From a virus, in IMG/VR virus record IMGVR_UViG_3300045988_139610: a DNA stretch of 64,000 nt. The stretch is one strand, 5' to 3'. Both the position numbers and the translations under genes were made by a program. Within the stretch, counting starts at the first letter, position 1. Each line of letters starts with the position of its first letter. Shown here one piece after another: positions 17,296 through 63,417 of the stretch. The notes under the pieces were generated by a model. That model worked only from the letters and a program-made list of their open reading frames with translations. It made no database searches and was not told the DNA's origin.

Positions 17296-17322
17296 GTCTT
17301 ACCACCCCTTTATTAATTATTT

Positions 17323-17508
17323 TCACATATCTGACTTTTCCATAAGTTGTTTAAAATCCTCAAATTCATCGAGTATTTTATTTATATCTTTATTTAATTC
17401 ACAATCATTACAGGAATGATTGCATATACTTTGACTATCACATATTGTTGCTATGACTAATTCTTTTATTTCTTCTAATTTATCTAACATTTCTTCTATA
17501 TACATCAT
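17323..17508 (-). CDS. small Cys-containing protein (61 aa)
   Basis: ORF-track ORF with SD AAAGGAGAA; CDSQSICNHSCNDC. Confidence 0.6.
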   Translation of the reverse strand: MMYIEEMLDKLEEIKELVIATICDSQSICNHSCNDCELNKDINKILDEFEDFKQLMEKSDM

Positions 17509-19113: not shown

Positions 19114-19193
19114 CACTTTACCCCCTATAGTTTATTAATTATTTTTATCTATACATAGATTGTATGATATTGTAATGATATTTGCCACCTCCT

Positions 19194-27361: not shown

Positions 27362-28537
27362 TTATTGGTTTAACCAAGATTCTAATAATTTTCTCATTCT
27401 AATTGAAGGTATATAAATATTAATCTTTTGATTATCTCTAATTCTACTTCTAAACATCCATTGAATTAACATTGATAATGCATAGTCATTTTCTTCTATT
27501 GTCACTCCCTTACCTTTAAAGAATTTATTAATCATTGGGTTATTATAGATATTAATCAAATAAGCTAAATTTTCTTTATGTTTATAATCATTTGTTGCTC
27601 TTATATTTAAGGATACAAACCCTTTAGTATATCCTTTACCTTTGATTTGACTCTCAAAATCTTTAAATGTCGTATACATATTATCTGATGATTTTCCTTT
27701 ACATATATTTCTAAAATAATTTACAGTATTATTTTTAAGTTCCTTCATTATTTCTTTTTTATCTGCTTTCATATACCATGATTTAGATAACGCTGTTGTT
27801 TTATCTCCTATATTATTTAATTTTCCATCATAAATATTTATTAAATCTTTATATTTGTTTCCACCTTCCTCTTTGTAATTTTTTAATCTATATTGTCTAT
27901 CTCCTATATCTATAACTGACTTATATTCATATTCTACTTGATTCATATCATAGTAATAAGCTTGAATTTGACTTTTAAATTTATAAGTTAATATATAAAT
28001 ATGTTTAAATGCTTTAAATATGTTGACGGGAAATGTCCATAGAATCATCGTATTTTCAAATAAATATACATCTCCATTTTCGCAACTATTTTTTAAACTG
28101 GTAAATTTACCAACATAACCAGAATCTATCCAATGTACTTTATCTTCTTCGTCAACTTCTATTGTTCCATGCTCTAATAACATACTTATGTCAGATTTAG
28201 AGATTTTTAAATCTTCTATCACATCAAAGACTTCGTCGAGAAATAAAATATATTCTCCCTTTTCTATTTCATCTATAACCTCTTTTGATATTCCTTTAAA
28301 TAAACTATGCGTAGATACAATGTTATACCCTTCTTTTAATAATTCATAAAAATGATTCTTTTTACTTCCTTTCCCTAATCTTTCATTAGGTTTCTTAAAT
28401 TCTCTATTATCACATTCTTTTTCAATCCTATCTAGCTCTGTAAGAAATGGAGTTATAAAAATAAATCTATCAAATATTTCCTCCTTCATATATTGTATTG
28501 CGTAACTTGTTTTACCAGCTCCAGGTGGGACAATCAA
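27362..28537 (-). CDS. SF2-like P-loop NTPase/helicase-like protein, frame-broken at the N-terminus
   Basis: PPGAGKTS Walker A, ILFLDEV Walker B, QWMFRSRIR motif-VI-like; paralog of 47498..48697; the true ATG (28565, MNEQCKITVVD) is in another frame. Confidence 0.7.
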   Translation of the reverse strand: MIVPPGAGKTSYAIQYMKEEIFDRFIFITPFLTELDRIEKECDNREFKKPNERLGKGSKKNHFYELLKEGYNIVSTHSLFKGISKEVIDEIEKGEYILFLDEVFDVIEDLKISKSDISMLLEHGTIEVDEEDKVHWIDSGYVGKFTSLKNSCENGDVYLFENTMILWTFPVNIFKAFKHIYILTYKFKSQIQAYYYDMNQVEYEYKSVIDIGDRQYRLKNYKEEGGNKYKDLINIYDGKLNNIGDKTTALSKSWYMKADKKEIMKELKNNTVNYFRNICKGKSSDNMYTTFKDFESQIKGKGYTKGFVSLNIRATNDYKHKENLAYLINIYNNPMINKFFKGKGVTIEENDYALSMLIQWMFRSRIRDNQKINIYIPSIRMRKLLESWLNQ

Positions 28538-28708: not shown

Positions 28709-29614
28709 TTAATCCCAAACATTATTTACCATTTTCTTTTTAGTATCTGTATTAGGATGGTAATAAAAAGAGTAGGTTGTTTGTGGATTACTATGTCCAG
28801 CTAGCTTTGCTGTTTCTGTAACATTAAATCCATTCTCCATATATGCCGTTAAACTTGTATGGCGTGCCGTATGAGGCGTAAAATTTGTAATTCCTACACT
28901 TTTAGTTATGTTTGATATTATTTTTTCAAGTCCACTTGAAGACAAACGTTGTTTATAACTTGATATAAATAGTGAATTATCTTTTGCATTTATTTTTAAT
29001 CTTTCATCAAGATATTTATTATATAAATCTAAAGCTTTATCGCTTAATACACATTGCTTTTTACTGCCACCTTTTTGAGTAATAGTATATTCTCCTGTTT
29101 CTCTATCTATTGTATCAACGTTTAAACTTCTTATTTCAAAATTTCTAAGTGCATTTTGGAATAAAATTTCTACAATTAAAATATTTCTTAAATTGTTAAA
29201 ATTCTTTTTCAAATTATATTCTGATTTTACATAATTTCTAATCTTTGTTATGTTTTTTGTATCTTCTGCGTGACCTTTAGATTCAATTCTTAATTGTTTA
29301 AGTTCCTTACTAGCATTAAAATCAATAATCCTAAATGCACATAGATAACCATAAAATGATTTACAACTAGCTATCCTTCTGTTAAGACTTTGATTAGATA
29401 ATCCTTCATTTCTTTTTTTGTTTAACCAATTTTGTAATTGGATTATAGTAGAATTTTGTATATCATCTATTCTTTTAAATCCACAATACTCAATCATTTC
29501 CTTTACTACTGGAATATATGATTTAATACTTTTAGGTGATAAGTTTTTTATATCCTTCAAGTATGCTATATAATTATTTATTAATCTTTCCATATTATTA
29601 ACTTTTTCCATCAT
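28709..29614 (-). CDS. tyrosine recombinase (XerC/D / phage integrase family)
   Basis: N-terminal SAM-like YLKDIKNLSPKSIKSY; catalytic …TPHTARHT… and …GHSNPQTTYSFYYH…. Confidence 0.85.
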   Translation of the reverse strand: MMEKVNNMERLINNYIAYLKDIKNLSPKSIKSYIPVVKEMIEYCGFKRIDDIQNSTIIQLQNWLNKKRNEGLSNQSLNRRIASCKSFYGYLCAFRIIDFNASKELKQLRIESKGHAEDTKNITKIRNYVKSEYNLKKNFNNLRNILIVEILFQNALRNFEIRSLNVDTIDRETGEYTITQKGGSKKQCVLSDKALDLYNKYLDERLKINAKDNSLFISSYKQRLSSSGLEKIISNITKSVGITNFTPHTARHTSLTAYMENGFNVTETAKLAGHSNPQTTYSFYYHPNTDTKKKMVNNVWD

Positions 29615-29779: not shown

Positions 29780-30262
29780 TTATTGATTCATGTTATCTGC
29801 TATGTTAAATACAATTTCACCATCTTTTATTATCAAATAACAAGTTCCCTCCCTATCCTTTGCGTCACAAATTTGAATTGTAAAGCTAACATTAGTGTAA
29901 CCTTTGTCGTTTAAGTATTCTTTTAAGGTACTAGATGTTTCTTTTAATGTATCTAACAGATTATCCCATTTACCAGTATATATAGCATTAGATACCTCAT
30001 CATATTGGAAATAGTTAGTTAATACTAAACCATCTTTTTCCATTTTATAAACGTAATCTTTTCCATAGAATATTTCATCCACCTTATTTTCGGTTAAATA
30101 ATATGCTATTTCTACCAGTTGTTGTTTTTGTTTATCTTTTGCTTCCTCATCCATTTGTTGAGTTGTATTTTCTGGCACAGAATCAAGTTCAACATCTTTG
30201 CATCCTATCATAGATATTGATAACATCCCTGTTAATATTAGTACTGATAATTTTTTATTCAT
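29780..30262 (-). CDS. lipoprotein
   Basis: MNKKLSVLILTGMLSISMIGC signal peptide with lipobox; start moved to the ATG after AAGGAGG. Confidence 0.75.
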   Translation of the reverse strand: MNKKLSVLILTGMLSISMIGCKDVELDSVPENTTQQMDEEAKDKQKQQLVEIAYYLTENKVDEIFYGKDYVYKMEKDGLVLTNYFQYDEVSNAIYTGKWDNLLDTLKETSSTLKEYLNDKGYTNVSFTIQICDAKDREGTCYLIIKDGEIVFNIADNMNQ

Positions 30263-30294
30263 AATTACCAACCTCCTTATGTTTTATATCATTA

Positions 30295-30324
30295 ATTATA
30301 TCATATTTCACTATCATTTGTCAA
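30295..30324 (-). promoter_or_regulatory. sigma-A-type promoter (TTGACA-18-TATAAT)
   Basis: minus strand TTGACAAATGATAGTGAAATATGATATAAT. Confidence 0.6.
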
Positions 30325-30332
30325 CAGTTTTA

Positions 30333-30944
30333 TTAATTATTTTCACCATCATTTACCATTATATTGTTTAATTTAATATATCCTTTTTCTTTATTATCAT
30401 ATATTCTTAATTTACCATAATCATCTTGATGTCTTCCATATAATAACAATTGAATTATTTTCTCTTTTGATAATCTATCTCTAGTGCCAACTAATTTTCC
30501 ACATTCATTACAATATATATGATAACGGTGATAATCTTTTTCTAATTCTAGATTAGGTGTAAAAAATTCATCATCATTCACTTTGTATTTACAGCAAAGT
30601 TCTTTCCATTCTTTATAATGACTTGTATTTCTACCATGTTTCTTGTCAGACAATAAATGGATTAATTCATGTTGGATAATATGTTTAACCGTATCATTAT
30701 CATATGAGTTAATACGTTTACTAAATTTAAATTTCACTGGTGATATAAACTCACCACTTCTCTTATATTTGCCACTAAAATAGCCCATGCTTGATTTAAG
30801 TCTACCGTCTATTGATATTGGAATAATATCAATTACATCACCAATTGTTTCTCTATCATCTTTATCCATTTTTAATACAAAATCCTTCATGTAATTTCTT
30901 ATTTCGTCTGATGTCCAGGTCTTATTAACACTTTTCCCCATCAT
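30333..30944 (-). CDS. SprT-like zinc metalloprotease
   Basis: HIIQHELIHLL (HExxH) plus Zn-ribbon YCNECGK; paralog of 32038..32607. Confidence 0.75.
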   Translation of the reverse strand: MMGKSVNKTWTSDEIRNYMKDFVLKMDKDDRETIGDVIDIIPISIDGRLKSSMGYFSGKYKRSGEFISPVKFKFSKRINSYDNDTVKHIIQHELIHLLSDKKHGRNTSHYKEWKELCCKYKVNDDEFFTPNLELEKDYHRYHIYCNECGKLVGTRDRLSKEKIIQLLLYGRHQDDYGKLRIYDNKEKGYIKLNNIMVNDGENN

Positions 30945-31006
30945 TCAATCCCCCAATATTATTTATTAATTATTTTTACTATCATTGCCAAGAGCTTTTA
31001 AAAAAT

Positions 31007-31033
31007 TTATTAATTATTTTTATTAATTATTTT
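31007..31033 (-). repeat. two overlapping tandem copies of the 15-mer
   Basis: + strand ttattaattatttttattaattatttt. Confidence 0.8.
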
Positions 31034-31046
31034 GATAATCTTTTTA

Positions 31047-31075
31047 GCAGGTTTTAAAGGATTACCTGCAAACCT
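31047..31075 (-). other. conserved-loop hairpin, copy C (GCAGGT-AATCCTTTAAA-ACCTGC)
   Basis: same loop and 5' flank AAAGGTTT as copies at 33988 and 35319, but a different, still complementary stem. Confidence 0.55.
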
Positions 31076-31081
31076 TTTATA

Positions 31082-31519
31082 TTATGGTAGTAATGTATAC
31101 ATACCACTTTTTAGCATCTTTATTAAACCAGTTAATGTTGTTGTGCTAGTGTATGGAAATACATGTACTGGATAATGTGCATAACCACCACTGTAGCTCA
31201 TACCTGTATAAGTAATAATACCAGTTGATGTTGTTGATACTATCAACAAAGATGTAGGAATTTTAGCACTATGCACACATACGTATTTGTGGTGAGTACC
31301 ACGCAATGCTATTTTATAACCTACAAGGTAAGGCAACATTGTTGCTGGAGTACTAGACGCTTTTAGAGTGCAAATTACTTTGCTTATGTGTGGTTTTACA
31401 GTTGCTGGAGTAATGTATGTTATTACTGGTGATGTTGATACTGGTTTACTTGATAAACTTTTTGCTAATGCTAAAGTAGTCATTGTTACTGTGCTTGGTA
31501 ATGTTATATATTTGCTCAT
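31082..31519 (-). CDS. compositionally aberrant T/S/P/Y/H-rich basic protein (145 aa, no D/E/N/Q)
   Basis: SD GAAAGGGG plus ATG and a consensus promoter upstream; visibly higher GC than the flanks; internal repeats. Confidence 0.55.
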   Translation of the reverse strand: MSKYITLPSTVTMTTLALAKSLSSKPVSTSPVITYITPATVKPHISKVICTLKASSTPATMLPYLVGYKIALRGTHHKYVCVHSAKIPTSLLIVSTTSTGIITYTGMSYSGGYAHYPVHVFPYTSTTTLTGLIKMLKSGMYTLLP

Positions 31520-31557
31520 ATTATAAAACCCCTTTCAATTATCTTAATCTTAATATT

Positions 31558-31586
31558 ATCATATATGATTTTAACTAAGATGTCAA
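31558..31586 (-). promoter_or_regulatory. sigma-A-type promoter (TTGACA-17-TATGAT)
   Basis: minus strand TTGACATCTTAGTTAAAATCATATATGAT. Confidence 0.6.
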
Positions 31587-31657
31587 GAGCTTTTTAAAAA
31601 ATTTATTAATTATTTTTACTATCATTTCAAGAGCTGGAAGGTTATTTAAAACCCTCC

Positions 31658-31969
31658 TTAATTACCATTCTTTTTCATATATTCAAAATCTCTAATTCTA
31701 TATTTTATTTCATATTCCATACCACACAATGCATCTGAAATCTTATCTGTTAAATCTTCAATTGTATTTTCTTTGTCAATTTCGACTATATCCTCTAATA
31801 AATAATCTATCATAATTAATTTTTTTTCTATTTTATTACGTTCATCATGAGTCAAATATCTAGCAGTAGCATATATGCATTTTTCTTCTTGTTCGTATTC
31901 ACAATTACCTCCCCACATCTTATTATAATCACAATTTACACATACATTTTTATCCATAATAATTATCAT
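31658..31969 (-). CDS. hypothetical Cys-containing protein
   Basis: 103-aa ORF; start ambiguous between two ATGs after AAGGAG. Confidence 0.6.
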   Translation of the reverse strand: MIIIMDKNVCVNCDYNKMWGGNCEYEQEEKCIYATARYLTHDERNKIEKKLIMIDYLLEDIVEIDKENTIEDLTDKISDALCGMEYEIKYRIRDFEYMKKNGN

Positions 31970-32037
31970 CTCCTTATATAAACAATATCATATTTAGCCA
32001 TCATTGACAAGAGTTTTATTAATTATTTTTCAACTAA

Positions 32038-32607
32038 TTATAAAGAAAACTTAAATTCAATATCTTTGCCTAATTTGTTATCATATATTCTTATATTTCC
32101 ATCATCAGTTCCATGTTTACTCATGTATATTAATTTCATCACTTGATTTTGTGATAATCTTGAATATCCTCCTAGATATTTACCACATAGCTTACAATAT
32201 ACATGATATCTATAAGCATCCTTTTCAATATCAATATCATTTTCAAAATACTGATTATCTGGAATACCATATTTATTACAATAAATTTTCCATATTTTAT
32301 TATGTTCCATATCTTTTTTATATTTTAAATTAACAAGTAAATGCATTAATTCATGCCCTATAACATGTTTAATTTCATCATCATTATAATAGAATAATCT
32401 TTTACTGAATTTGAATTGCACAGCATTAATTACCTCTTTTGTTTCAATATCTATACTCATCGATACATAAGCCATATTTTTAGTCAATCTACCATCTATT
32501 TTTATAGGTAATGTTTCTACATCTTTTAACACTATATCCCTATCTCTAGCAGTCATCTTATTAGCAACTTCTAACATATAATCTCTTATTTTATTTTCAT
32601 CCCACAT
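32038..32607 (-). CDS. SprT-like zinc metalloprotease
   Basis: HVIGHELMHLL (HExxH) plus YCKLCGK Zn-ribbon. Confidence 0.75.
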   Translation of the reverse strand: MWDENKIRDYMLEVANKMTARDRDIVLKDVETLPIKIDGRLTKNMAYVSMSIDIETKEVINAVQFKFSKRLFYYNDDEIKHVIGHELMHLLVNLKYKKDMEHNKIWKIYCNKYGIPDNQYFENDIDIEKDAYRYHVYCKLCGKYLGGYSRLSQNQVMKLIYMSKHGTDDGNIRIYDNKLGKDIEFKFSL

Positions 32608-32698
32608 AGTAACACCTCCAATTAATATATTTTATTATCATTCCAAGAGCTTAAGAGGATTAATTAACCCTCTTATTAATTATTTCTTACTTAAAATA

Positions 32699-33223
32699 TT
32701 ATATGATGTCCTTTAAATTTTCCATGACTGCATATATTTTGTATTCTATTACTTCTAAATCGTATTGTTCACACAGAGATTCCCAGACTTCCAATTGACA
32801 TTCTTGATATGTTTCATAATCGAATTCTGAATATTTTTGCCAATCATCATAATAGTCTTCTGCATATTCTTGTATTTCTTCTTCTGTTTCACAATCATAT
32901 TCATCTATAACTTCATCATGTAACCATTCAATGTATTCGTCATAATTCCAGACTTCTACTAATTCTCCTAAATCCTCATCTGTCACATCTGGATATTCAT
33001 CTATTGTTATTATAACTATGCTATCTCCATTATATACATCCATTCGTGTTTCATTGCCAACATAAGTTGTATAATCTACTGTGCCATCTTTAGATAAGAT
33101 TATATCATGTTTTACATAACCGTCAGTCCAAAGGTTTTTATGAAGTTCACAATACAATTCTTTAATTTCTTCTTGTATCTTTTCTTCTCTTAATAAATTT
33201 AAGAATCTTTCAGATTTTTTCAT
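32699..33223 (-). CDS. acidic hypothetical protein (paralog of 33368..33856)
   Basis: start moved to ATG (MKKSERFLNLL…) after AAAGGGGTGG; strongly D/E-rich. Confidence 0.65.
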   Translation of the reverse strand: MKKSERFLNLLREEKIQEEIKELYCELHKNLWTDGYVKHDIILSKDGTVDYTTYVGNETRMDVYNGDSIVIITIDEYPDVTDEDLGELVEVWNYDEYIEWLHDEVIDEYDCETEEEIQEYAEDYYDDWQKYSEFDYETYQECQLEVWESLCEQYDLEVIEYKIYAVMENLKDII

Positions 33224-33367
33224 ATTTACCACCCCTTTATTTTTATTATACTTAAAGTATAACATATTTAATTTTAAATTACAATAACTTTTTAATAATT
33301 TTATTAATTATTTTTATTATCTTTTCTATATGATAGTATAGATATATCTATACTATCATATAATGGT

Positions 33368-33856
33368 TTATATCATCATTTCTAGTTGATTTATCTTTCT
33401 TGATATAACATTATATATGAAATCTGCGTCTTCCATATCACAAATATAATTCCAAGCACATTGTTCTTCGTCTTCATAACCTAATTCATTGAAATCCTTA
33501 TATTCACTCCATGTCGCATTATCCCAAATATACTGTTGTTTATCTATATTGCTTTCAAATATTTCTTCACATTCTTCCATTAGATAGTCCACGAATTCTT
33601 GATAATCATCTTGTAATTCAATGTTACCAAATTCTGTCTCTGGTACTTCTACATATTCATTGAGTTCTATTATTAGTAATTGATTATCTTTTACTTCATT
33701 TGTAGCTGTTATTACTCCATTTAAATCTAGTACTATTTTAGTTTTTATTTTTCCATCATACCATGCTTGTTTATGAAGAGTGCAATAGCAGTCTATTATT
33801 TTGCCTTCTATTGTTTCGTCATTTAATAATTTTAAGAATCTTTTAATATTATTCAT
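33368..33856 (-). CDS. acidic hypothetical protein
   Basis: 162-aa ORF with SD GAAAGGGGA; KRFLKLLNDETIEGKI…CTLHKQAWYDG parallels 32699..33223. Confidence 0.7.
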   Translation of the reverse strand: MNNIKRFLKLLNDETIEGKIIDCYCTLHKQAWYDGKIKTKIVLDLNGVITATNEVKDNQLLIIELNEYVEVPETEFGNIELQDDYQEFVDYLMEECEEIFESNIDKQQYIWDNATWSEYKDFNELGYEDEEQCAWNYICDMEDADFIYNVISRKINQLEMMI

Positions 33857-33888
33857 ATCATTTATCCCCTTTCAATTATCTTGCTTAT

Positions 33889-33918
33889 ATTATAGCACTC
33901 AACTTATATAAAAGTCAA
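33889..33918 (-). promoter_or_regulatory. sigma-A-type promoter (TTGACT-18-TATAAT)
   Basis: minus strand TTGACTTTTATATAAGTTGAGTGCTATAAT. Confidence 0.55.
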
Positions 33919-33987
33919 GCGCTATCTTATTAATTATTTTTACTATCATTGTCAAGAATTTTTAAAAAATTTATTAATTATTTTTAT

Positions 33988-34018
33988 GCTGGTTTTTAAA
34001 GGATAAACCAATAAACCT
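33988..34018 (-). other. conserved-loop hairpin, copy A (TGGTTT-ATCCTTTAA-AAACCA)
   Basis: read in sequence, immediately after the stop of 34025..34879. Confidence 0.55.
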
Positions 34019-34024
34019 ATAATA

Positions 34025-34879
34025 TTATCCTATTAATTTATATTGATTTTGTAAATTTTCAAATACTATTAAAATATCTGAATCTCTTTTAGCATACCAA
34101 CATTTTTTATTTCTATTCCATCTAAATCCAAATTGTTTCAACATATTTCTAAAATCTTCTGATGGTTTACCTTCAAAATATAATTCTATTCCATTTTTTT
34201 CAAGGTTTTCTATTATATCAAATTTATTATTATTTTTATTATTTTTTTCTTGTCTTTTAGATTTTTTAACTTTTTCAACCACTTTGACTGTTTCATCATA
34301 ATTACCAAGGTTTAAAGATGGATAAAAATTAACGTCAAAATAATCTATTTGATAGTCACAATCAGAATATCTATATTGATTTATTATTTCCCAAACTCTT
34401 ATAACTAATTCTTTGCCATATATTGATAATTCTGGATATTCGATATATGGTGATATATCATAATTGATTATATTTTTATCATCATTTGCATAAACACTTT
34501 TAGGAGTTTCTTTTACAATTACAGTTAAACTACAACCTCCAGAAAATTCATGTTTTGTAACACTAAATTTACAATCTGGAAATTCTTCTTTTAATTGTTT
34601 TCTAACTAATTTTGCTATTGTTTTAATATCTAAATCTCTATTATATTTGTCACCCTTCCAACCATTTGCAGTATAAAATTCATTTCTTGTGCTTTCTGCT
34701 GTTTCCTCTGTTTTTATATTATCTCTATTTTTCCAAATAGGAAATAACATATCATATTCATTATTGACAGCTTTCATTGTTTCAGCGTCTCCACCTCTAT
34801 CTGGATGATGTTTAAAAGCTAATTTTTTAAATTGTTTTTTTAAGTCTTCTAAAGAGTTTACATTTTTAAAATATTTCAT
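34025..34879 (-). CDS. J-domain (DnaJ-like) protein
   Basis: LKKQFKKLAFKHHPDRGGDAETMKAVNNEYDML contains the HPD tripeptide in J-domain context. Confidence 0.8.
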   Translation of the reverse strand: MKYFKNVNSLEDLKKQFKKLAFKHHPDRGGDAETMKAVNNEYDMLFPIWKNRDNIKTEETAESTRNEFYTANGWKGDKYNRDLDIKTIAKLVRKQLKEEFPDCKFSVTKHEFSGGCSLTVIVKETPKSVYANDDKNIINYDISPYIEYPELSIYGKELVIRVWEIINQYRYSDCDYQIDYFDVNFYPSLNLGNYDETVKVVEKVKKSKRQEKNNKNNNKFDIIENLEKNGIELYFEGKPSEDFRNMLKQFGFRWNRNKKCWYAKRDSDILIVFENLQNQYKLIG

Positions 34880-34942
34880 ATCATTTGTCCCCTTTCAATT
34901 ATCTTATTAATTATTTTTAAGAGCTGGAAGGGATTAATTCCC

Positions 34943-35218
34943 TTACCATTTTTCATAATATTCATCATCTCCATATCTATCTAAATAAGTGTTTTTAGCA
35001 GTCATTTTAAAATCATATTCATTGTCTACATCACTTATTTCTATTATATATTTTTTTCTGTTTAAAGATACTTGTACGTCGGTAGCTCCAAAACATAAGT
35101 TGTCTAATACTTTTTTAATGTTGTTATAATTTAATTTATCCAATTGTTTATCCCAACAACCTATTATAAAACCTTCTTTATTTAATTTTTCTTCAATTCT
35201 TTGTTTATTTGTTTTCAT
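34943..35218 (-). CDS. hypothetical protein
   Basis: 91-aa ORF with SD AAAGGGGTTGA. Confidence 0.65.
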   Translation of the reverse strand: MKTNKQRIEEKLNKEGFIIGCWDKQLDKLNYNNIKKVLDNLCFGATDVQVSLNRKKYIIEISDVDNEYDFKMTAKNTYLDRYGDDEYYEKW

Positions 35219-35252
35219 AATATCAACCCCTTTTATTTATTATTATGCTTTA

Positions 35253-35282
35253 ATTGTATCACACTTTATTTTAATTTGTCAA
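35253..35282 (-). promoter_or_regulatory. sigma-A-type promoter (TTGACA-18-TACAAT, TGTG extended)
   Basis: minus strand TTGACAAATTAAAATAAAGTGTGATACAAT. Confidence 0.6.
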
Positions 35283-35318
35283 GAGCTTTTTTAAAAAAAA
35301 TTATTAATTATTTTTACG

Positions 35319-35349
35319 ACTGGTTTTTAAAGGATAAACCAGTAAACCT
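35319..35349 (-). other. conserved-loop hairpin, copy B (ACTGGTTT-ATCCTTTA-AAACCAGT)
   Basis: read in sequence. Confidence 0.55.
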
Positions 35350-35463
35350 TTTTATATTTATATAATATATGATTTTCTCATAACTTAATCACTCCTTAAA
35401 TTTATTAATTATTTTTATATTTCCCTAATTAATAGGGCTTGAGCTAGAGGACTTTAAGTCCTC

Positions 35464-35688
35464 TTATTTCCAATAACCTATAAAATACATATTATTATTT
35501 TCTAAAAAGTCTATAAAGTCTAAGATAAATTTATCTTTGTCTTTTACTTGCACTCCTCCTACTATATACAACTCCTTACCTTCATAGTCATCATATAATA
35601 ATATACCCTCATAATCTAGTAAATAGTCTACAACTAAATTATCATCTAATGTATCTAAAACATAACCATTAAAATTTAGCCATTCCAT
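35464..35688 (-). CDS. hypothetical protein
   Basis: start moved to the ATG (MEWLNF…) after AAAGGAGTGG. Confidence 0.65.
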   Translation of the reverse strand: MEWLNFNGYVLDTLDDNLVVDYLLDYEGILLYDDYEGKELYIVGGVQVKDKDKFILDFIDFLENNNMYFIGYWK

Positions 35689-35720
35689 AATTACCACTCC
35701 TTTATTTACTTATACTTAAT

Positions 35721-35749
35721 ATTATATACTATCATTTAAGATAAGTCAA
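35721..35749 (-). promoter_or_regulatory. sigma-A-type promoter (TTGACT-17-TATAAT) with ATGATAGTA half-operator in the spacer
   Basis: minus strand TTGACTTATCTTAAATGATAGTATATAAT. Confidence 0.6.
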
Positions 35750-35804
35750 TAATTTTATTAATATTATTCACTATCATTTTGATAGTATTGAGCAAAGGAG
35801 AAAA

Positions 35805-36317
35805 TTATTCCCCTAATTTACTTCTTATTTCTCTACAGTCTTGACAAATACCGTCGTTGTTGTTTAATTGTTTTCCACAAAAACCACAATAACTGGTATT
35901 TGTATATTCAACTGTATAATTATTATTAGTATCATTTTCATTGCTATTGTTAGTATTATTAGTATTGCCATTGTTAGTATTAGTATTACTATTACTATAA
36001 TTTTTATTATCATTACTATAATTTTTATTACTATTATTATAATTTTTATTACTATTATTGTATGTAGATTTTATTGTAGTTGTTTTTACAACATAATTGT
36101 TTTTACTATCATTATTGTTGTCTTCTTGTTGTCGTTCTTCTGGGTCTACTTCTTTTTCTTCTTTTACTGTTGTTTTTTCCATATAAACATATTGTTTTTT
36201 ACTATCATTTACAGTATTATCTTTTATGCTATCAAGTGTAAAAGCATGTACAAGCAATCCCGTAATTAACATACAATTAACCATTGCAACGCCTATAAAC
36301 CCTATATATTTTTTCAT
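35805..36317 (-). CDS. membrane-anchored Asn-rich low-complexity protein with C-terminal Zn-ribbon
   Basis: N-terminal TM helix; NNSNKNY repeats encoded by 3 x 21-bp DNA repeats (35994-36056); CGFCGK…CQDC. Confidence 0.7.
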   Translation of the reverse strand: MKKYIGFIGVAMVNCMLITGLLVHAFTLDSIKDNTVNDSKKQYVYMEKTTVKEEKEVDPEERQQEDNNNDSKNNYVVKTTTIKSTYNNSNKNYNNSNKNYSNDNKNYSNSNTNTNNGNTNNTNNSNENDTNNNYTVEYTNTSYCGFCGKQLNNNDGICQDCREIRSKLGE

Positions 36318-36378
36318 AATCTTATCACTCCTAATTAATATAATTTACTATCATTCTGATAGCTATGAGCTAAAGGGT

Positions 36379-36609
36379 TTAAAATAAACCCTTGTTGTAT
36401 TCTTCTAGTGTATGAGGGAAGTCGTATGCATACGGTCTATCTAATATATCATTTAATATTTCTTGTTTTATGCTATCGGTATCTACCCCTAATAAATCTC
36501 CTTCACTGTCATATACTAATTGATACTCTTGTTCTCCAGAAGTCCATTCATAAGTTTCTGTACTATCATTTAATTTAACTATTCTTCCATCAAATTTTTG
36601 TATTTTCAT
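36379..36609 (-). CDS. hypothetical protein
   Basis: 76-aa ORF with SD TAGGAGTGA. Confidence 0.65.
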   Translation of the reverse strand: MKIQKFDGRIVKLNDSTETYEWTSGEQEYQLVYDSEGDLLGVDTDSIKQEILNDILDRPYAYDFPHTLEEYNKGLF

Positions 36610-36673
36610 AACTTAATCACTCCTATTTAATATTATTTACTATCATTCTGATAGTTTTGAGCAAAGGAGAAAA

Positions 36674-37021
36674 TTATTCTCCTAATATAATTTTTTTACT
36701 GTTTTCTATATATTTTTTATCATCATTAGTGGCTTGATATTTTATTTCTTCTAAATAAACTTCCATAACTTCAACATTAACTCTTTTACCATCATTGTAT
36801 TTTTGAATTATATCGTTAATATTTTCATAAGTACTTGATTTTACACTACTTAATTCATTCTTCATATAATAAACTTCATTTTCTATATTTATCCTATCGT
36901 TGTAAAGTCCTAATTTGTCCAATAGATTTTTATAAAATCTAATATCCTTATCCATTAGTTGTTCTATTTGATATTGATATCCATATTCTTCTAATAATAT
37001 ATTTTTTTCTTTTTTAGTCAT
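36674..37021 (-). CDS. hypothetical protein
   Basis: 115-aa ORF with SD AAAGGAGTGG. Confidence 0.65.
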   Translation of the reverse strand: MTKKEKNILLEEYGYQYQIEQLMDKDIRFYKNLLDKLGLYNDRINIENEVYYMKNELSSVKSSTYENINDIIQKYNDGKRVNVEVMEVYLEEIKYQATNDDKKYIENSKKIILGE

Positions 37022-37110
37022 TTAAATCCACTCCTTTAATTCATTATATTTAATATTATATACTATCATTTAAGATAGTCTTGAGCTTAGAGGGATTATT
37101 TCCCTCTTAT

Positions 37111-37434
37111 TTATGCATCAATACCATTTTCAATTGTATTTTGTAATTCTAAAATATATTCTAATATTGTATTTCTGTTCACTCTTTTACTATCTTTTAT
37201 ATAATCCTTTAATTCTTCTATTACTCTTTGTGCATTATATAATTGACTTTTTGCATCATCAAATCTTAATTCATAATGTTCTTTTTCATATTTATAATAT
37301 TGCATATCTTTTTTAACTTCATTTACTTCTTCATTATGAAGCCCTTCCATAGCTTCGTATACATCATCAGTAACATTACCTTGTAAAGATTCCATATTAT
37401 TAATTATATTCCCGTTGTTTAAATAATACATCAT
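37111..37434 (-). CDS. hypothetical protein
   Basis: 107-aa ORF with SD TAGGAGTGA. Confidence 0.65.
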   Translation of the reverse strand: MMYYLNNGNIINNMESLQGNVTDDVYEAMEGLHNEEVNEVKKDMQYYKYEKEHYELRFDDAKSQLYNAQRVIEELKDYIKDSKRVNRNTILEYILELQNTIENGIDA

Positions 37435-37540
37435 AACTTAATCACTCCTATTTATTAATTATTTTTATGATTATATAATATCATGTTTTATTATTATTGT
37501 CAATAGTTTTATTAATTATTTTCGCCATCATTGCTTAATA

Positions 37541-37705
37541 CTATAAGTAGTATATTGTATTAAGCAAATCAATAATATCAACTACATTAACGTTGAATGC
37601 ATAACCTATACAGTCAACTACATACATCAATGCTATGGATATTTGATTTTTAAATATAACAATTCCTAATACTAACACTAATACAAATAACATTTTATTT
37701 TTCAT
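37541..37705 (-). CDS. small membrane protein (54 aa)
   Basis: hand-translated MKNKMLFVLVLVLGIVIFKNQ…; SD AAAGGAGATA. Confidence 0.4.
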   Translation of the reverse strand: MKNKMLFVLVLVLGIVIFKNQISIALMYVVDCIGYAFNVNVVDIIDLLNTIYYL

Positions 37706-37776
37706 AATCTTATATCTCCTTTTTATTAATATAATTTGCTATCATTCGATAGCTTGAGCTAGAGGAATAAATTCCT

Positions 37777-37923
37777 CTATTTAATAATTATTTTTCCTTT
37801 GCCTTCATATATTTTGTTATATAACATTTTAGTTCTTATTGCAAGACCTTTTGACTTTACTTTTGCTAAAAATTCTTCGCCTTCTTCTGTTACTAAATAT
37901 AAGCTATAATATACTTTCTTCAT
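37777..37923 (-). CDS. small hypothetical protein (48 aa)
   Basis: hand-translated MKKVYYSLYLVTEEGEEFLAKVK…; SD AAGGAGTGATGA. Confidence 0.4.
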   Translation of the reverse strand: MKKVYYSLYLVTEEGEEFLAKVKSKGLAIRTKMLYNKIYEGKGKIIIK

Positions 37924-37998
37924 AACTCATCACTCCTTAAATTTATTAATATTATATGCTATCTTTTTGATAGTCTTGAGCTAGAGGACTTTAATCCT

Positions 37999-38268
37999 CT
38001 ATTTATAATTTTCTATTAATTCTTTTTTATATTCTTCGGTGATATAGTAATTTAAATGTTCACCTAATTCAATGTTACAATTATAATACATATATTTACT
38101 ACATTCATTTTGAAACTTGTCGTATGAATTAGCTACTATCTTATAGGGACTTATCCATATATTATTTGTTCTTACTTTACAAGGTAATACATATATTTCA
38201 AAGTCTTTACTGTTTTTAACTTCTCTTCTTATTATTGCCTTCGCTTGATTAAATTTAATTTTTAACAT
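37999..38268 (-). CDS. hypothetical protein
   Basis: start moved to the ATG (MLKIKF…) after TAGGAGTGA. Confidence 0.65.
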   Translation of the reverse strand: MLKIKFNQAKAIIRREVKNSKDFEIYVLPCKVRTNNIWISPYKIVANSYDKFQNECSKYMYYNCNIELGEHLNYYITEEYKKELIENYK

Positions 38269-38332
38269 ATTTATCACTCCTAAGTTTTATTAATTATTTT
38301 TACTATCATTGGATAGCATTGAGCTGGAAGGA

Positions 38333-38776
38333 CTAGAATATAACTTCTAAGTCCTTGTTATATCTTTTCATATTCAAAGTTGCGTGAGTGTCGTCAACGC
38401 TATTGTAGTAAACTGTTATTATTTTCCCTGTTTTTGGTTCAACGACAACCTTCATGACACAATTAACTGTTTTTCCGTCAATATCTACTGGAAATGTTTC
38501 CCAACTTTCTAATAATATTCTTCCATTCCTTCTAGTGTAATTATACTCTATGATATCGTATGCTCCATCTTTTAACATTGAGCAAATAACCTTCATATTG
38601 TAGCTAACACTTGATTTTTTTCTTAAATGATAGCTTGCATATATTTTTGTATGTAGCATGTTGTTTATTGCTATAATGCATTTTTGATAGTCATCACCCT
38701 TGAATTGGCTCATATATTTTTTTTCTTGTCCTTCTGTTTTTCTTACTATACCTTTTTTTATTTCACCTTTTAACAT
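38333..38776 (-). CDS. hypothetical protein
   Basis: 147-aa ORF with SD GGGGAGGA. Confidence 0.7.
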   Translation of the reverse strand: MLKGEIKKGIVRKTEGQEKKYMSQFKGDDYQKCIIAINNMLHTKIYASYHLRKKSSVSYNMKVICSMLKDGAYDIIEYNYTRRNGRILLESWETFPVDIDGKTVNCVMKVVVEPKTGKIITVYYNSVDDTHATLNMKRYNKDLEVIF

Positions 38777-39490: not shown

Positions 39491-39584
39491 TTTTTTGTTA
39501 CTTAATGAACGATTGGGCGTTCTCCCTTGTCTAATATATTTTTTTGTTGCTTGATGGTTGATGGGCAACCTCCCTTGTCTAATA
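39491..39584 (-). repeat. two tandem ~46-bp repeats, each a small hairpin with covarying stem (candidate structured RNA)
   Basis: R1 …ATG-GAACG-ATTGGG-CGTTC-TCCCTTGTCTAATA; R2 …ATG-GGTTG-ATGGG-CAACC-TCCCTTGTCTAATA. Confidence 0.6.
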
Positions 39585-39595
39585 CTTATATTTTA

Positions 39596-39624
39596 ATGTT
39601 ATCACTTGTTGTTTATTTTGTCAA
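39596..39624 (-). promoter_or_regulatory. sigma-A-type promoter (TTGACA-17-TAACAT, TG-extended), outermost leftward promoter
   Basis: minus strand TTGACAAAATAAACAACAAGTGATAACAT. Confidence 0.5.
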
Positions 39625-39824
39625 CAACTTTTTTAAATTTATTTTTTCTAAAAAAATATATAGATAGAAAAATGATAAATAAAAACGCTACAAGTTATTA
39701 ATATCAACGGTTTAAGCTATATTTTAGATAGTTACAATAAAAATAAAAGTTTATATATAAATAAATTTTTATAGCTAAATACTTTAATATTTTAAGTAAA
39801 AGATAGATTCCACGTGCAATTATT

Positions 39825-40078
39825 AAAGTATTCGGCAAGTTTTACTTTAAAAAGTGATAGTAGAAAAAAGGGTCACTTTATTTATTTAAGTTTACGCCCT
39901 CTAAATAATTAATTCTTTACATAAAAAATAATTTATATATTAAAATATATTTGTATCATATTAGATAATTCTTACATAAAAAATAATTTATATGGTGAAA
40001 GCAAGTGTCGAATACTTTATATAAGTAAAGTGCATTGTGTCGAATACTTTACTTATTGATAGTAGAAAATAGGGTCAC
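39825..40078. repeat. cluster of short repeats (GTGTCGAATACTTT x3, GATAGTAGAAAAnAGGGTCAC x2, AATTCTT(T)ACATAAAAAATAATTTATAT x2)
   Basis: copies at 40005-40018, 40037-40050 and inverted 39825-39837; 39854-39876 and 40058-40078; 39911-39939 and 39967-39993. Confidence 0.7.
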
Positions 40079-40849
40079 AAATTTTATTAAAGTGGATAGT
40101 ACAATTTACTTATTTTAGTAAAGTCATAAAAAAGTATTTTATCGTACAAAATTATTTTTATGGAATACTCCATTTTAAAATTGATTTTAAAGTTTAATAA
40201 TTAAAGTTGGCATTAAATTAACAAGTTTAACTTAATTAAATAAAGCAGAATGATAATATCCCCTTTAAAATGATAAGGTAAATCAAGGATTAGCTTTATT
40301 TAATTAGGGAAAATATAAAGATTGTTTTATATTGTAAAGTTATTATAAAATACTGTAATCGTTGATATTACTAGCTTTAGAGTAATTCGACAAATATATG
40401 CATGGTTTATATAATAAAGAGAACAAAAGAGAATAGCTTAATTAGTTAATATAAATTAACATTATGCTTTATTATCTTAATTATCATAGGTATATTTATC
40501 AACTATCTAGCATTATCAAGCATTACAGGACTTGGGAAAATATATGGGAAAACAATAGAAGTGTTGATATAACTAGGATTGAATACCATACATAGGTATA
40601 CACAAATAGAAGAAATAGAAGAATGTAGCAGTTTCAACGGTTTCACGCTTTACAATATACCCACTATAGGTATAGGATACAGTTATTGCAACGGTTGTAT
40701 GGTATTGGGTAATAAAGGTAAACTGTGAAACAATTATAGGTAAACACTTTAGGAAAATAAAGGAAAATAGATAAATTACTTTAGATTATTAGGAAGAATT
40801 GAATAGATGGTAAAAAATGTAAAATGAAGGAATTTAGAAAAATTTTCCT

Positions 40850-41069
40850 TGTGGATAACTTAGATTAAGAAAAAAAGTGTATAAGTGTATGAAAGCGTTG
40901 ATATTACTAGATTATATAGACTTATAGGTTGTTAGCTTGAGATGTAGTCGGAAATGTAATTGTAAGTATTGGTAATACTTGCTTTCGTATATATATTTAT
41001 ATACTATTAATAGGCTTGTGGATAACTAGCAAAATATTTGTGGATAACTAGGGAATATAGTGTTGATAA
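40850..41069 (+). promoter_or_regulatory. DnaA-box cluster (3 perfect TGTGGATAA plus 1 TGTTGATAA, same orientation): candidate origin
   Basis: TGTGGATAA (reverse complement of TTATCCACA) at 40850-40858, 41017-41025 and 41039-41047; TGTTGATAA at 41061-41069. Confidence 0.65.
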
Positions 41070-41629
41070 CCACGTCACCTGGACAAGTTGTCAACTTTAA
41101 AAAATTAAGAATGTACGATTAATTAATACTTAATCGCACTTTTTGGAGAAGGAATTTTTTTTCAAGAGGCAAGAAATGTTGATATTCCAACATCTAGGGG
41201 GTGGTATCATATTCGGAGGGGCTTGACAAAAATTTTATTCTGTGTAGTAGTTTACCAACTATGTGTCGTAAAAAATACCGAATTAGATTTTTAGCAATTC
41301 CTACAAGCTCCTATATTTGCAACATAGCCATATTTGCAAATCAAGAATACTAGGAAATTAATACGTTTTTGTTATACTTCATTTTGCCTAATTTAAAAGT
41401 ATTAAAATTAAATGTTTCTATGTTGTGCTTATTCTCGGGAAATGGTATCATAAATATGTTATTTTACGTTTATAAATTAGTACTTGATTTAATGGGAATT
41501 TAATAGTATATTTAATATATTGGAAATAAATGGGAAAATATGGGTTTAATCAGATATAATACACCGCCATTACGCATTAATTTACCTATATAAACCCATT
41601 AGTTTTACCGTATCAAACCATTGAAATAC

Positions 41630-41675
41630 CAAATAAAAGAGTGTGTAGTACAAGCAATAGTTGTATCACACACTC
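41630..41675 (-). terminator. rho-independent terminator after the Replic_Relax-like gene
   Basis: minus strand GAGTGTGTGATACAA-loop-TTGTACTACACACTC followed by TTTTATTTGG. Confidence 0.75.
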
Positions 41676-41684
41676 AATTTTACA

Positions 41685-46398: not shown

Positions 46399-46458
46399 AA
46401 AATGGATTGTATAAAAAATATAAGTATTATCAAAAATAATTAATAAGGAGAGGATAAT

Positions 46459-63383: not shown

Positions 63384-63417
63384 GAATAAAATAATTAATA
63401 AAATGGAGGTTAAAAGA

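Follow-up and report, generated by a model that had tools for sequence, protein, structure and literature searches.

The stretch analysed here, a window of 64,000 nucleotides (nt) from one strand of the virus record IMGVR_UViG_3300045988_139610, carries between 30.3 and 38.4 kb a hyperplastic array of accessory genes, small and for the most part without known function, beside an apparent plasmid-type origin. We propose that the junctions between these genes are mobile cassettes resembling the promoter-early stem-loops (PeSLs) of T4-type phages, that they act as punctuation in early transcripts and as the homology through which genes are shuffled, and that the palindrome recurring in them is part of a stem-loop and not an operator. 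We regard this explanation as probable, with real room for doubt. Window genes are named W02-W17, with W13' and W14' as further array genes; x03-x07 are genes of relatives, and L with a number denotes a related locus.

Cassettes delimit gene exchange among relatives

Comparison of the window with 14 related loci shows an exchange of genes among related phages that is delimited by cassettes. The relatives differ through the presence, absence and permutation of single small genes, and the breaks fall inside the intergenic cassettes. When open reading frame (ORF) families were clustered across loci, the window order W02-W03-...-W13 was answered in L001 by W02 W05 x03 x04 W06 x05 W04 W08 x06 x07 W11; W12 and W13 are swapped in L004, L005 and L006, and W08 precedes W02 in L014. 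Six complete arrays, running from W02 to W17, hold 15-22 genes each and 29 families in total, 7 of them common to all. Their 64 distinct gene adjacencies include none that all six share and 39 that are unique to one genome.

The edges of homology blocks locate these exchanges more closely. Junction zones, each taken to run from 12 nt before the end of a gene to 15 nt into the following one, occupy 26% of the region and take in 187 of the 229 edges (82%; p = 3e-69), or 97 of 127 when only unique edge positions are counted. The modal block starts lie at the 15-mers described below (35317, 33941, 34906, 32028), at palindromes (37967, 37075, 36638, 36355) and at the GCTC box (30996), and the modal block ends (34904, 38285, 37444, 33214, 35213, 30255) coincide with the end of a 15-mer, with the Shine-Dalgarno sequence (SD) or with a point a few codons into a gene. 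The 16-21 kb around the portal gene, where palindromes are absent, are collinear in 13 relatives except for homing-endonuclease insertions. An earlier reading of this DNA from its letters alone (the sequence-only reading) had likened the cassettes to PeSL units and had suggested looking in relatives for gene replacement delimited by cassettes; the comparison given here is that one, and it bears the likeness out. The natural evidence is unusually clear, with dozens of cassette gains, losses and permutations among close relatives.

The full cassette and its collapsed short form

Read from the intergenic regions of the 14 related loci, the full cassette begins with the stop codon and a first hairpin (H1). 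Next come the box (A)G(C/T)TC(W)(W), an inverted repeat (H2) that is short and has the core TATCA-N3-4-TGATA, a 15-mer, AAAATAATTAATAAA, that is exact or takes the form of a -10-like variant, a promoter, a strong and conserved SD and the ATG. The promoter is an optional part of the form TTGAC(A/T), 6-7 nt, AATGATAGTA-TATAAT-ATTAAATATAAG; in the related ~135-kb human-gut phage genomes the 17-nt spacer of TTGACA-N17-TATAAT ends in AATGATAGTA, and twelve different canonical promoters of this TTGAC(A/T)...AATGATAGTA-TATAAT type occur in the family. All of these parts are present in the window cassettes at 35689-35814, 31520-31657 and 33857-34024 as well as in relatives, and in full cassettes the inverted repeat stands upstream of the 15-mer, well outside the core promoter. 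Every cassette motif is absent from the distant relatives L007-L012 and L181-L183, so the cassette system is lineage-specific.

The most conspicuous form of H2 in the window is a perfect palindrome, CTATC-N4-6-GATAG. Searches by regular expression and DNA pattern found exactly seven copies in the 64 kb (35771-35785, 36348-36362, 36640-36654, 37063-37078, 37739-37752, 37959-37973 and 38303-38316) and none outside the array, against a chance mean of 0.08 and a maximum of 1 in 100 dinucleotide shuffles. A GCTC box precedes every palindrome, the hairpin lies 0-3 nt upstream of the box, and AGCTC[AT][AT]G has nine copies on the - strand, all within 30.9-38.0 kb. A scan of all viral contigs with the palindrome pattern gave, among the matches listed, unrelated single matches. 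The sequence-only reading had placed all seven palindromes correctly, and it was also right about the stop-codon hairpin that has no U-tract (its examples were 35446-35464 and 34928-34944), about a half-mutated copy, TTATC-TTAAAT-GATAG (35729-35744), which lies inside a canonical TTGACT-N17-TATAAT promoter at 35721-35749, and about a different palindrome, CCCTATTAATTAGGG, at 35423-35437. Its figure of at least eight small genes preceded by the palindrome stands for the seven with perfect copies, whereas an eighth requires the half copy or the alternative palindrome. The TATAAT or TAAAAT that it placed after the palindrome is found as TATAAT in only three of nine cassettes, the others having AATAAT, AATTAT or the 15-mer.

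Alignment suggests an origin for this arrangement: the perfect palindromes that abut TATAAT are best read as a collapsed short form of the cassette without 15-mer and -35 box. In alignment A3 the window junction W06>W07 equals the W06>x05 junction of L001 minus 41 nt, and the 41 nt that are missing account for the right arm of H2, a stretch resembling the 15-mer, the -35 box TTGACT and the 5' part of the spacer. The palindrome at this junction would therefore be the left arm of H2 fused to the promoter's own spacer element, the 9-mer ATGATAGTA. The case carries a caution, namely that a perfect palindrome adjoining TATAAT can be a collapsed junction module and not an operator.

The palindrome as a probable stem-loop

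H2 is a selected dyad or stem-loop and not one recognition sequence. An inverted repeat of at least 5 bp lies within 8 nt of the box in 72 of 111 contexts that have H1 and the box, against 29% of shuffles. The distance between the 5-nt cores is N4, N5 or N6 in 15, 23 and 21 unique contexts, respectively, and distances of 3 and 8-10 nt also occur. The main type, ACTATCA-N3-TGATAGT, is replaced in the same slot by GTCATCA/TGATGAC (five loci), TTTAGTATC/GATACTAAA (the AGTATC/GATACT type), ATTATCA/TGATAAT, GCTATCT/AGATAGC or ATCCT/AGGAT, and in the window by CCCTA/TAGGG. Such compensating variants reside with the main type inside single genomes, which a stem-loop can explain and a single repressor cannot.

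Covariation points the same way. A gap-free alignment was made of 15 distinct 7-3-7 instances, selected on the inner four pairs and hence informative at the outer three only; three of its seven pairs, all three of the outer ones, change on both sides, and 93% of cells pair. The covariation score was reached by 0 of 500 shuffles, a figure that is suggestive and not a probability because the sequences are related. The outermost pair is A-U in six instances, G-U in six and G-C in three, and pairs in every instance on the sense strand. In the first, mixed set of cassettes, the sixth arm position showed no covariation.

The sequence-only reading had instead taken the palindrome for an operator filling the spacer between -35 and -10 boxes, across a bank of coordinately repressed promoters. 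In the form considered here, ATGATAGTA would be the asymmetric site of a phage regulator that switches the whole early array off, in a plasmid prophage or late in infection, with single sites in some promoters and paired inverted sites in others. We consider this unlikely, but the distribution of the 9-mer gives it substance. All 14 exact copies lie between 30977 and 38309, with none elsewhere in the 64 kb, and 13 are on the - strand, which is the sense strand there. The 9-mer occupies the spacer of at least 15 canonical promoters; in relatives it directly abuts TATAAT in 12 different ones and elsewhere directly follows TTGACA, and either position would occlude RNA polymerase. In the window it abuts TTGGCA (30977), TTGAAA (31617) and TTGACA (33941), as the earlier reading had noted; the site that it gave near 30311 is a one-mismatch variant, ATGATAGTG, at 30309 after TTGACA. 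The 9-mer is kept across the whole family, the divergent member L185 included. Moreover, plasmid-type genes (RepE-like, ParM-like, Xer-like) mean that the genome may need a lysogeny repressor, and the window encodes two kinds of DNA-binding protein, a Rha-type one with ANT and a Bro-N one, besides three sigma-like proteins. There is also a precedent in the L5-type repressors, which bind >20 oriented asymmetric sites in promoters and intergenic spaces (PMC9283540).

Several features of the cassettes speak against repression at the palindrome. One rigid dimer could not accommodate a core-to-core spacing that ranges over 3-10 nt; compensating arm variants occur together in single genomes; and the repeat of the full cassette lies outside the core promoter, upstream of the 15-mer, with a right arm that is often degenerate (GATAAT, GATTAT, GATACT). 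The seven palindromic window cassettes have no -35 box to repress: at that position stand AAGACT, AAAACT or AATACT, none of which is a -35 box by the scan criteria, although the sequence-only reading had accepted AAGACT as one, and all seven fail the sigma-A consensus scan. A true -35 hexamer accompanies only one copy (35749), the half copy in the promoter at 35721-35749. Three of the 14 9-mers lie within coding sequence. Finally, searches with Pfam, PHROG and NCBIfam found no helix-turn-helix protein of the CI/Cro/Xre type among the ~90 ORFs of the window, which is less than half of the genome; here the earlier reading, which saw no obvious repressor gene, agrees. For these reasons we do not retain its bank of coordinately repressed promoters.

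Other ways of parsing the same letters were tried and rejected. T(T/A)GCTC as a -35 box with an extended -10 TG-n-TAGTAT would have a spacing of 14-17 nt, with A at the last -10 position in many copies; an extracytoplasmic function (ECF) sigma promoter, GCTC...GATAGTA, would have a variable spacing of 12-15 nt; a Fur/PerR-type box has half-sites one mismatch off in the wrong order and spacing; and a MerR-type spacer operator would need the -35 box that is absent. As a separate observation, each ATGATAGTA followed by A reads aTGATAGTAA (for example 38301-38309 plus the next bases), which places TGA, TAG and TAA consecutively in one frame, and in the 15-mer after it TAA follows in two frames. 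In DNA so rich in A and T this may be coincidental.

The first hairpin and a proposed punctuation of transcripts

H1 is likewise a selected structure, and its sequence is free. Within the 34 nt upstream of GCTC, a hairpin of -5 kcal/mol or lower is found in 65% of 106 unique contexts in the family; shuffles reach 7%, and positional control windows placed 66-100 nt further upstream 6%. The stems comprise >15 unrelated sequences, and in a homologous subset of nine hairpins four of 12 pairs have changed on both sides with pairing kept. H1 moves with the upstream gene, as W04 illustrates by keeping its own hairpin, with compensatory differences, before either W05 or W08. Before the window palindromes H1 reaches -7.8 to -11.8 kcal/mol and overlaps or follows the stop codon. 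It is followed by (T/C)(T/A)AGCTC, not by a T-run, and so does not qualify as an intrinsic terminator; a terminator scan of the sense strand listed a single cassette element, the H2 palindrome at 37738-37753, and several H1 score in antisense only. Canonical U-tract terminators occur elsewhere in the window, at ~24.0 and ~25.9 kb.

Minimum-free-energy folds of the eight window cassettes place H1 and H2 on either side of the box in 8/8 cases, with z-scores of -2.0 to -2.9. In five of these eight folds the GCUC box also pairs with GAGU at or just after the downstream SD (GGAGUGA), enclosing H2, for example in the cassettes 38269-38356, 37022-37107 and 36610-36683. Such a helix would couple access to the SD to the state of the junction, but with just 4-6 pairs it may be fortuitous.

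We propose that transcription starts at many sigma-A-type promoters and that H1, the box and H2 would then punctuate read-through transcripts at the RNA level, either by attenuating transcription or by exposing the single-stranded box to endonucleolytic cleavage. By either route the upstream mRNA would end in H1 and the downstream mRNA would begin with H2. Because H1 has no U-tract, we lean slightly toward processing and stabilisation or weak attenuation over outright termination. At the DNA level, comparison shows the same repeated modules to be the short homologies at which recombination deletes, inserts and permutes gene and promoter cassettes among related phages.

It is also conceivable, though we think it doubtful, that the AG(C/T)UC(W)(W) box and the 15-nt H2 form a dedicated, protein-recognised RNA signal, either a nut-like boxA/boxB pair for antitermination past the next H1 or a cleavage site for the phage's own beta-CASP ribonuclease. 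The boxA of phage lambda is CGCTCTTA and its boxB has 15 nt; in the cassettes, too, a linear box precedes a hairpin of ~5 bp with a purine-rich loop of 3-6 nt, 14-16 nt in all, and GCTCTTA and GTTCTTA variants of the box exist. The constant A-U, G-U or G-C pairing of the outer H2 position on the sense strand, the placement of the unit right after a terminator-like hairpin in each cassette, and the aCPSF1/RNase J-like beta-CASP nuclease encoded at 3511-4776 would all suit such a signal. Most window copies, however, read GCTCAAG and not GCTCTTA, and GCTC also directly abuts TTGACA in canonical promoters, where that promoter would leave it untranscribed. An N-like or Q-like protein was not identified, the Rfam scan gave no match, and we know of no precedent for one nut-like site per gene.

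The 15-mer, promoters and recombination

The most abundant part of the cassette is the 15-mer. The window holds 44 exact copies of AAAATAATTAATAAA, all co-oriented with the genes (0 antisense, with 0.03 expected), and 21 sense copies with one mismatch against 1 antisense; examples are 600-613, 17310-17323, 31603-31616 and 38287-38300 on the - strand and 46433-46446 and 63388-63401 on the + strand. It is dense in the left arm and rare among structural genes, stands 3-5 nt upstream of TTGACA or directly before the SD, and often includes the upstream stop codon. It could be an UP element or AT-rich linker, a promoter for a phage sigma factor, or a stoperator-like site; a literature search for it found nothing relevant. 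A consensus scan identified 20 strong sigma-A-like promoters on the - strand; one precedes the Rep gene (44142), the other 19 belong to the left arm, and 13 of the 20 have a 15-mer just upstream, in the UP-element position. The array region is unusually rich in such promoters, with nine strong ones counted in 10 kb. Ten of the strong - strand promoters lie at 29.6-39.7 kb, and none of these is a palindromic cassette. The same scan found no strong sigma-A-type promoter on the + strand of the right arm (46-64 kb), which, together with the three sigma-factor-like genes of the window, suggests that the late genes may be under a phage-sigma cascade.

At the DNA level, recombination between direct 15-mers that flank a promoter would, we infer, leave the common junction '15-mer + SD'. 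A more specialised possibility is an integron-like platform, with the hairpins, the box or the 15-mer as sites of the adjacent Xer-like tyrosine recombinase. The general layout invites the comparison: small ORFs in one orientation, each followed by a structure-conserved, sequence-variable hairpin and a short conserved box; true permutations beyond indels; and a tyrosine recombinase gene just past the end of the array in all relatives that reach it. The details make it very improbable. Breakpoints are dispersed over the 15-mer, the box, the H2 loop, the SD and the first or last codons, with no fixed point. The hairpins are perfect stems of 15-29 nt, unlike attC sites, which are imperfect repeats of 57-141 nt with R/L boxes. 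The recombinase is XerC/XerD/XerA-like, with integron-integrase matches of 27-34 bits against cut-offs of 265-435, and is co-oriented at the distal end, and an attI/Pc arrangement is absent; Xer-like enzymes are in any case expected in plasmid prophages for dimer resolution.

Several observations nevertheless weigh against our proposal of PeSL-like cassettes. H1, having no U-tract, is not a canonical intrinsic terminator, H2 is weak, with 5-7 mostly A-U pairs, and 15 nt is short for homologous recombination. The 9-mer, confined to the array, almost always sense and found in promoter spacers in two registers (abutting the -10 box in the main promoter family and the -35 box at 30309 and 33941), has the look of an operator half-site and could be the site of a regulator. 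The main H2, the 9-mer and the 15-mer are exact even in a member whose W02 protein is only 62% identical. For H2 and the 15-mer, this exactness exceeds what bare structure or homology would need and may point to a factor that recognises sequence; for the 9-mer and the 15-mer, it would fit such a factor of the L5 or P1 type. The 'early' timing itself, like attenuation and processing, is a prediction. One might suppose that the exact, oriented 15-mer, the AG(C/T)TC box and the hairpins are no passive homology but recognition elements of dedicated phage machinery, be it the Xer-like recombinase, one of the three phage sigma factors or the beta-CASP ribonuclease. We rate this broader idea as improbable, but if it were true the array would be a self-contained gene-cassette platform of a phage-plasmid, of a new integron-like or stoperator-like type, in gut Clostridia.

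Comparison with known systems

PeSLs combine a sigma-70 promoter, an AT-rich upstream region with a stop codon, a stem-loop, in many cases placed between -35 and -10, as well as an SD; they lie beside ORFans in hyperplastic regions and undergo recombination, at times within the loop, and in T4-type phages their stem-loops attenuate read-through (Arbiol et al. 2010, PMC2839356; see also Comeau et al. 2014, PMC4122927). The cassettes described here are likewise intergenic composites of an AT-rich stretch with a stop codon, a sigma-70-type promoter, a stem-loop upstream of, between or over the hexamers, and an SD, and they precede small genes without known function in a region that is hyperplastic. 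Their indels, replacements and permutations are bounded by cassettes, with crossovers anywhere in ~100 nt of shared sequence, the loop included. They differ in belonging to a siphovirus-like candidate phage-plasmid of gut Clostridia and not to a T4-like myovirus of Gram-negatives, in having two stem-loops, of which H1 is variable and G+C-rich and H2 semi-conserved and A/U-rich, with the AG(C/T)TC box between them, in carrying an exact, oriented 15-mer in place of a loose AT-rich region, and in the many cassettes, all seven palindromic window ones included, that have no -35 box. By this analogy we regard the array as working like PeSLs without being a member by descent; its promoter, terminator and mini-circle activities are predictions. 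The PeSL idea, in which regulatory cassettes serve also as linkers for recombination, would then no longer be confined to T4-type phages of Gram-negatives but would cover a family of ~135-kb candidate phage-plasmids of human-gut Clostridia, one that is abundant and uncultivated. It would also gain a concrete grammar (H1, box, H2, 15-mer, promoter, SD) for the acquisition and expression of accessory genes, which probably serve host takeover or anti-defence.

At the RNA level, the array resembles the cip-cel operon of Ruminiclostridium, of the Clostridium group, in which intergenic pairs of stem-loops (a G+C-rich SL1 and a small SL2, joined by a linker) determine cleavage of the mRNA in the linker and shield the two ends so formed, the stem-loops being 'not composed of conserved sequences' (PMC10311766). 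The array shares the G+C-rich stem-loop at the gene end, with similarly free sequence, the single-stranded linker and the small second stem-loop. In contrast to cip-cel, its unit is repeated >15 times and is mobile, its linker and H2 are conserved, it often has its own promoter, and cleavage is putative. Early polycistronic mRNAs of phages can also be punctuated by RNase III, whose sites in T7 and the Bacillus phage SP82 are long, irregular double-stranded stems cut within the stem. The array resembles these in its intergenic stem-loops, which would leave a protective 3' hairpin, but its stems of 5-12 bp are too short for RNase III.

Dispersed repressor sites offer a further parallel. The C1 operators of phage P1 occur both singly and in pairs. 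Operators and stoperators of the mycobacteriophage L5 type are asymmetric repressor sites scattered over promoters and intergenic spaces (PMC9283540). The 15-mer and the 9-mer are comparable as short, asymmetric, multi-copy motifs co-oriented with transcription in promoters and short intergenic spaces. The array differs from these systems in that no repressor was identified, the 15-mer is rare in the late, structural arm, often contains the upstream stop codon and marks recombination breakpoints, and the palindromic arrangement has variable spacing and compensating variants. With integrons the array shares a one-orientation series of small ORFs, structure-conserved sites, a nearby tyrosine recombinase gene and a varying cassette order; it has no IntI-type integrase, no attI/Pc and no R/L boxes, its hairpins are far shorter than attC, its breakpoints are not at one position, and many of its cassettes have their own promoters.

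Individual junctions of the array

All junctions described here are on the - strand. The first, W02>W03 (38269-38356), is of the short form, with H1 at 38328-38356, GCTC at 38321-38324, palindrome/H2 at 38303-38316, the 15-mer at 38286-38300 and the SD GGAGTGA at 38274-38280. W03>W04 (37924-38001), also short, has H1 at 37982-38001, GCTC at 37978-37981, palindrome/H2 at 37959-37973, TATAAT at 37951-37956 and the SD at 37930-37936; W03 is missing in all relatives examined, and the homology break lies inside this palindrome (37967, n=9). The short-form junction W04>W05 (37706-37779) combines H1 at 37760-37779, whose compensatory differences among relatives are GAGGAA/TTCCTC and GAGGGA/TCCCTC, with GCTC at 37756-37759, the palindrome/H2 GCTATC-GAAT-GATAGC at 37739-37752 and the -10-like hexamer AATTAT. 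A promoter cassette without hairpin follows at W05>W06 (37435-37540), where a canonical TTGACA-N17-TATTAT promoter (37475-37503) has a direct copy of the 15-mer on each side (37508-37522 and 37451-37465).

Three more short forms come next. W06>W07 (37022-37107) has H1 at 37089-37107, GCTC at 37083-37086, palindrome/H2 at 37063-37078 and TATAAT at 37055-37060; W07>W08 (36610-36683) has H1 at 36665-36683, a TTGCTC box at 36659-36662, the palindrome/H2 ACTATCA-GAA-TGATAGT at 36640-36654 and the SD at 36617-36623; and W08>W09 (36318-36393) has H1 at 36373-36393, GCTC at 36367-36370, palindrome/H2 at 36348-36362 and the SD at 36325-36331. W09>W10 (35689-35814) is of near-full form: H1 at 35796-35814, GCTC at 35790-35793 and palindrome/H2 at 35771-35785 are followed by the 15-mer-like AATAATATTAATAAA and the canonical promoter TTGACT-N17-TATAAT (35721-35749), whose spacer holds the half palindrome (35729-35744) and a 9-mer (35727-35735).

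Downstream of W10, the cassette at 35382-35464 carries H1 (35446-35464), GCTC (35441-35444), the alternative palindrome CCCTA-TTAAT-TAGGG in the H2 slot (35423-35437), the 15-mer (35401-35415) and the SD (35389-35395). This complete cassette (H1, box, palindrome, 15-mer, SD GGAGTGA) leads into an ORF of only 7 codons (35358-35381) and then into a gene-end module; the ORF looks like the stump of a deleted cassette gene. The promoter cassette upstream of W11 (35219-35357) consists of an interleaved double-stem module (35316-35349), a 15-mer (35300-35314), a T/A run and a canonical TTGACA-N18-TACAAT promoter (35253-35282) abutted by GCTC (35283-35286). It contains the commonest homology-block start of all, 35317 (n=19). 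W11>W12 (34880-34948) has H1 at 34925-34948 and GCTC at 34921-34924, followed directly and without palindrome by a 15-mer variant (...AAG, 34903-34917) and the leader box ATAATTGAAAGGGG (34889-34902); homology blocks begin and finish at 34904-34917.

At W12>W13 (33857-34024) an interleaved double-stem module (33985-34018) precedes a 15-mer (33970-33984), TTGACA followed by a 9-mer (33941-33949), another 15-mer (33926-33940) and a canonical TTGACT-N18-TATAAT promoter (33889-33918). In W13>W13' (33224-33367) a perfect palindrome of 36 nt (33327-33362) replaces H1, with a 15-mer at 33300-33314 and a weaker promoter, TTGTAA-N17-TATACT; this palindrome, TATATGATAGTATAGATA|TATCTATACTATCATATA, directly follows the W13 stop codon and has a 9-mer ATGATAGTA in each arm, in a relative order opposite to that of the other palindromes. 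W13'>W14 (32608-32698) comprises a 15-mer variant, H1 at 32652-32675, GCTC at 32647-32650, TTGG-AATGATAATA and an SD. W15>W16 (31520-31657) has H1 at 31636-31657, GCTC at 31631-31634, TTGAA followed by a 9-mer (31617-31625), the 15-mer at 31602-31616, T6A5-GCTC at 31584-31601 and a canonical promoter at 31558-31586. W16>W14' (30945-31081) begins with an interleaved double-stem module (31043-31075) and continues with overlapping tandem 15-mers (31006-31033), GCTC (30992-30995), TTGGCA followed by a 9-mer (30977-30985) and a 15-mer (30962-30976). W14'>W17 (30263-30343) has a 15-mer (30329-30343) and a canonical TTGACA-N18-TATAAT promoter (30295-30324), in which the -35 box is followed immediately by the 9-mer variant ATGATAGTG (30309-30317).

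The interleaved double-stem modules form a second type of gene end, AGGTTT-ACTGGTTT-ATCCTTT-AAAACCAGT, with copies at 35316-35349, 33985-34018 and 31043-31075. Their complementary pairs, AAGG/CCTT and ACTGGTTT/AAACCAGT, are interleaved in the topology of an H-type pseudoknot, and the longer stem varies yet pairs, as ACTGGTTT/AAACCAGT or GCAGGT/ACCTGC. Each copy has a 15-mer and then a canonical promoter downstream.

Genome setting

The window has a G+C content of ~25%. Up to ~41.7 kb the genes lie on the - strand, and from ~42.4 kb onward most of them lie on the + strand. Products of the right arm include terminase-like, portal and protease proteins, a sigma factor of 393 aa, homing endonucleases and a methylase; those of the left arm include a beta-CASP nuclease, ClpP, a DNA ligase, a ParM-like actin, two small ECF-like sigma factors, the DNA-binding Rha/ANT and Bro-N proteins and the Xer-like recombinase. 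The two arms are separated by ~2 kb of non-coding DNA, in which there are three DnaA boxes, and by genes for a RepE/RepM-like initiator and an FtsK-like protein. The non-coding stretch, 39500-41680, holds several short direct repeats besides the three TTATCCACA matches (40850-40858, 41017-41025 and 41039-41047, - strand), separates the array from the initiator gene (44151-45107, - strand) and is probably a plasmid-type origin.

By portal sequence, the closest deposited phages are those of the C. difficile phiCD211 group (~131 kb), at 30-32% identity. Human-gut metagenomes supply the near relatives, which are uncultivated contigs of 126-141 kb; one of them is labelled as a Clostridia metagenome-assembled genome (MAG). 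We read the source genome as that of a large (~135-kb) siphovirus-like phage with plasmid-type genes, a candidate phage-plasmid of human-gut Clostridia whose lifestyle is predicted from gene content. Near-identity searches with the array region returned zero matches among deposited phages and plasmids, and a scan of a genome collection with the DnaJ/LPD29 protein gave two fragmentary, unrelated matches only, which do not identify a host. Scans with Rfam (gathering thresholds) and for tRNAs were empty. Among the array proteins, 16 of 20 have no Pfam or PHROG family; homologues of W02, in at least 70 variants, came only from metagenome assemblies, where they are unannotated, and from one Clostridia MAG, and PDB sequence searches with W02 and with a 197-aa origin-side protein found nothing.

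The XerC/XerD/XerA-like tyrosine recombinase gene (28709-29614, - strand) lies just past the distal end of the array, with one non-array gene, W17 (29780-30262), in between; any link between the enzyme and the cassettes is hypothetical. Two of the three sigma-factor-like genes, at 18541-19116 and 19194-19784 on the - strand, are tandem ECF-like paralogues with 37% mutual identity, and the third (50333-51514, + strand) encodes the 393-aa protein. The beta-CASP/RMMBL nuclease (3511-4776, - strand) matches best the model of the type VII CRISPR-associated Cas14 (E = 7e-62) and second-best archaeal aCPSF1 ribonucleases (E = 2e-54), both scores being under the model cut-offs; such a gene is unusual in a phage, and its product is a candidate enzyme for mRNA processing.

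Paralogues occur both between the arms and within the array. Inter-arm pairs are the HNH endonucleases at 22633-23409 and 46689-47465 (66% identity), the DNA methylases at 2492-3265 and 49537-50313 (57%) and the PHROG 2467-type proteins at 27362-28537 and 47498-48697 (55% over the compared 47-residue stretch). Within the array, on the - strand, SprT-like proteins at 30333-30944 and 32038-32607 share 42% identity, and two members of an unknown family at 32699-33223 and 33368-33856 share 26%. These intra-array pairs are consistent with duplication through cassette recombination.

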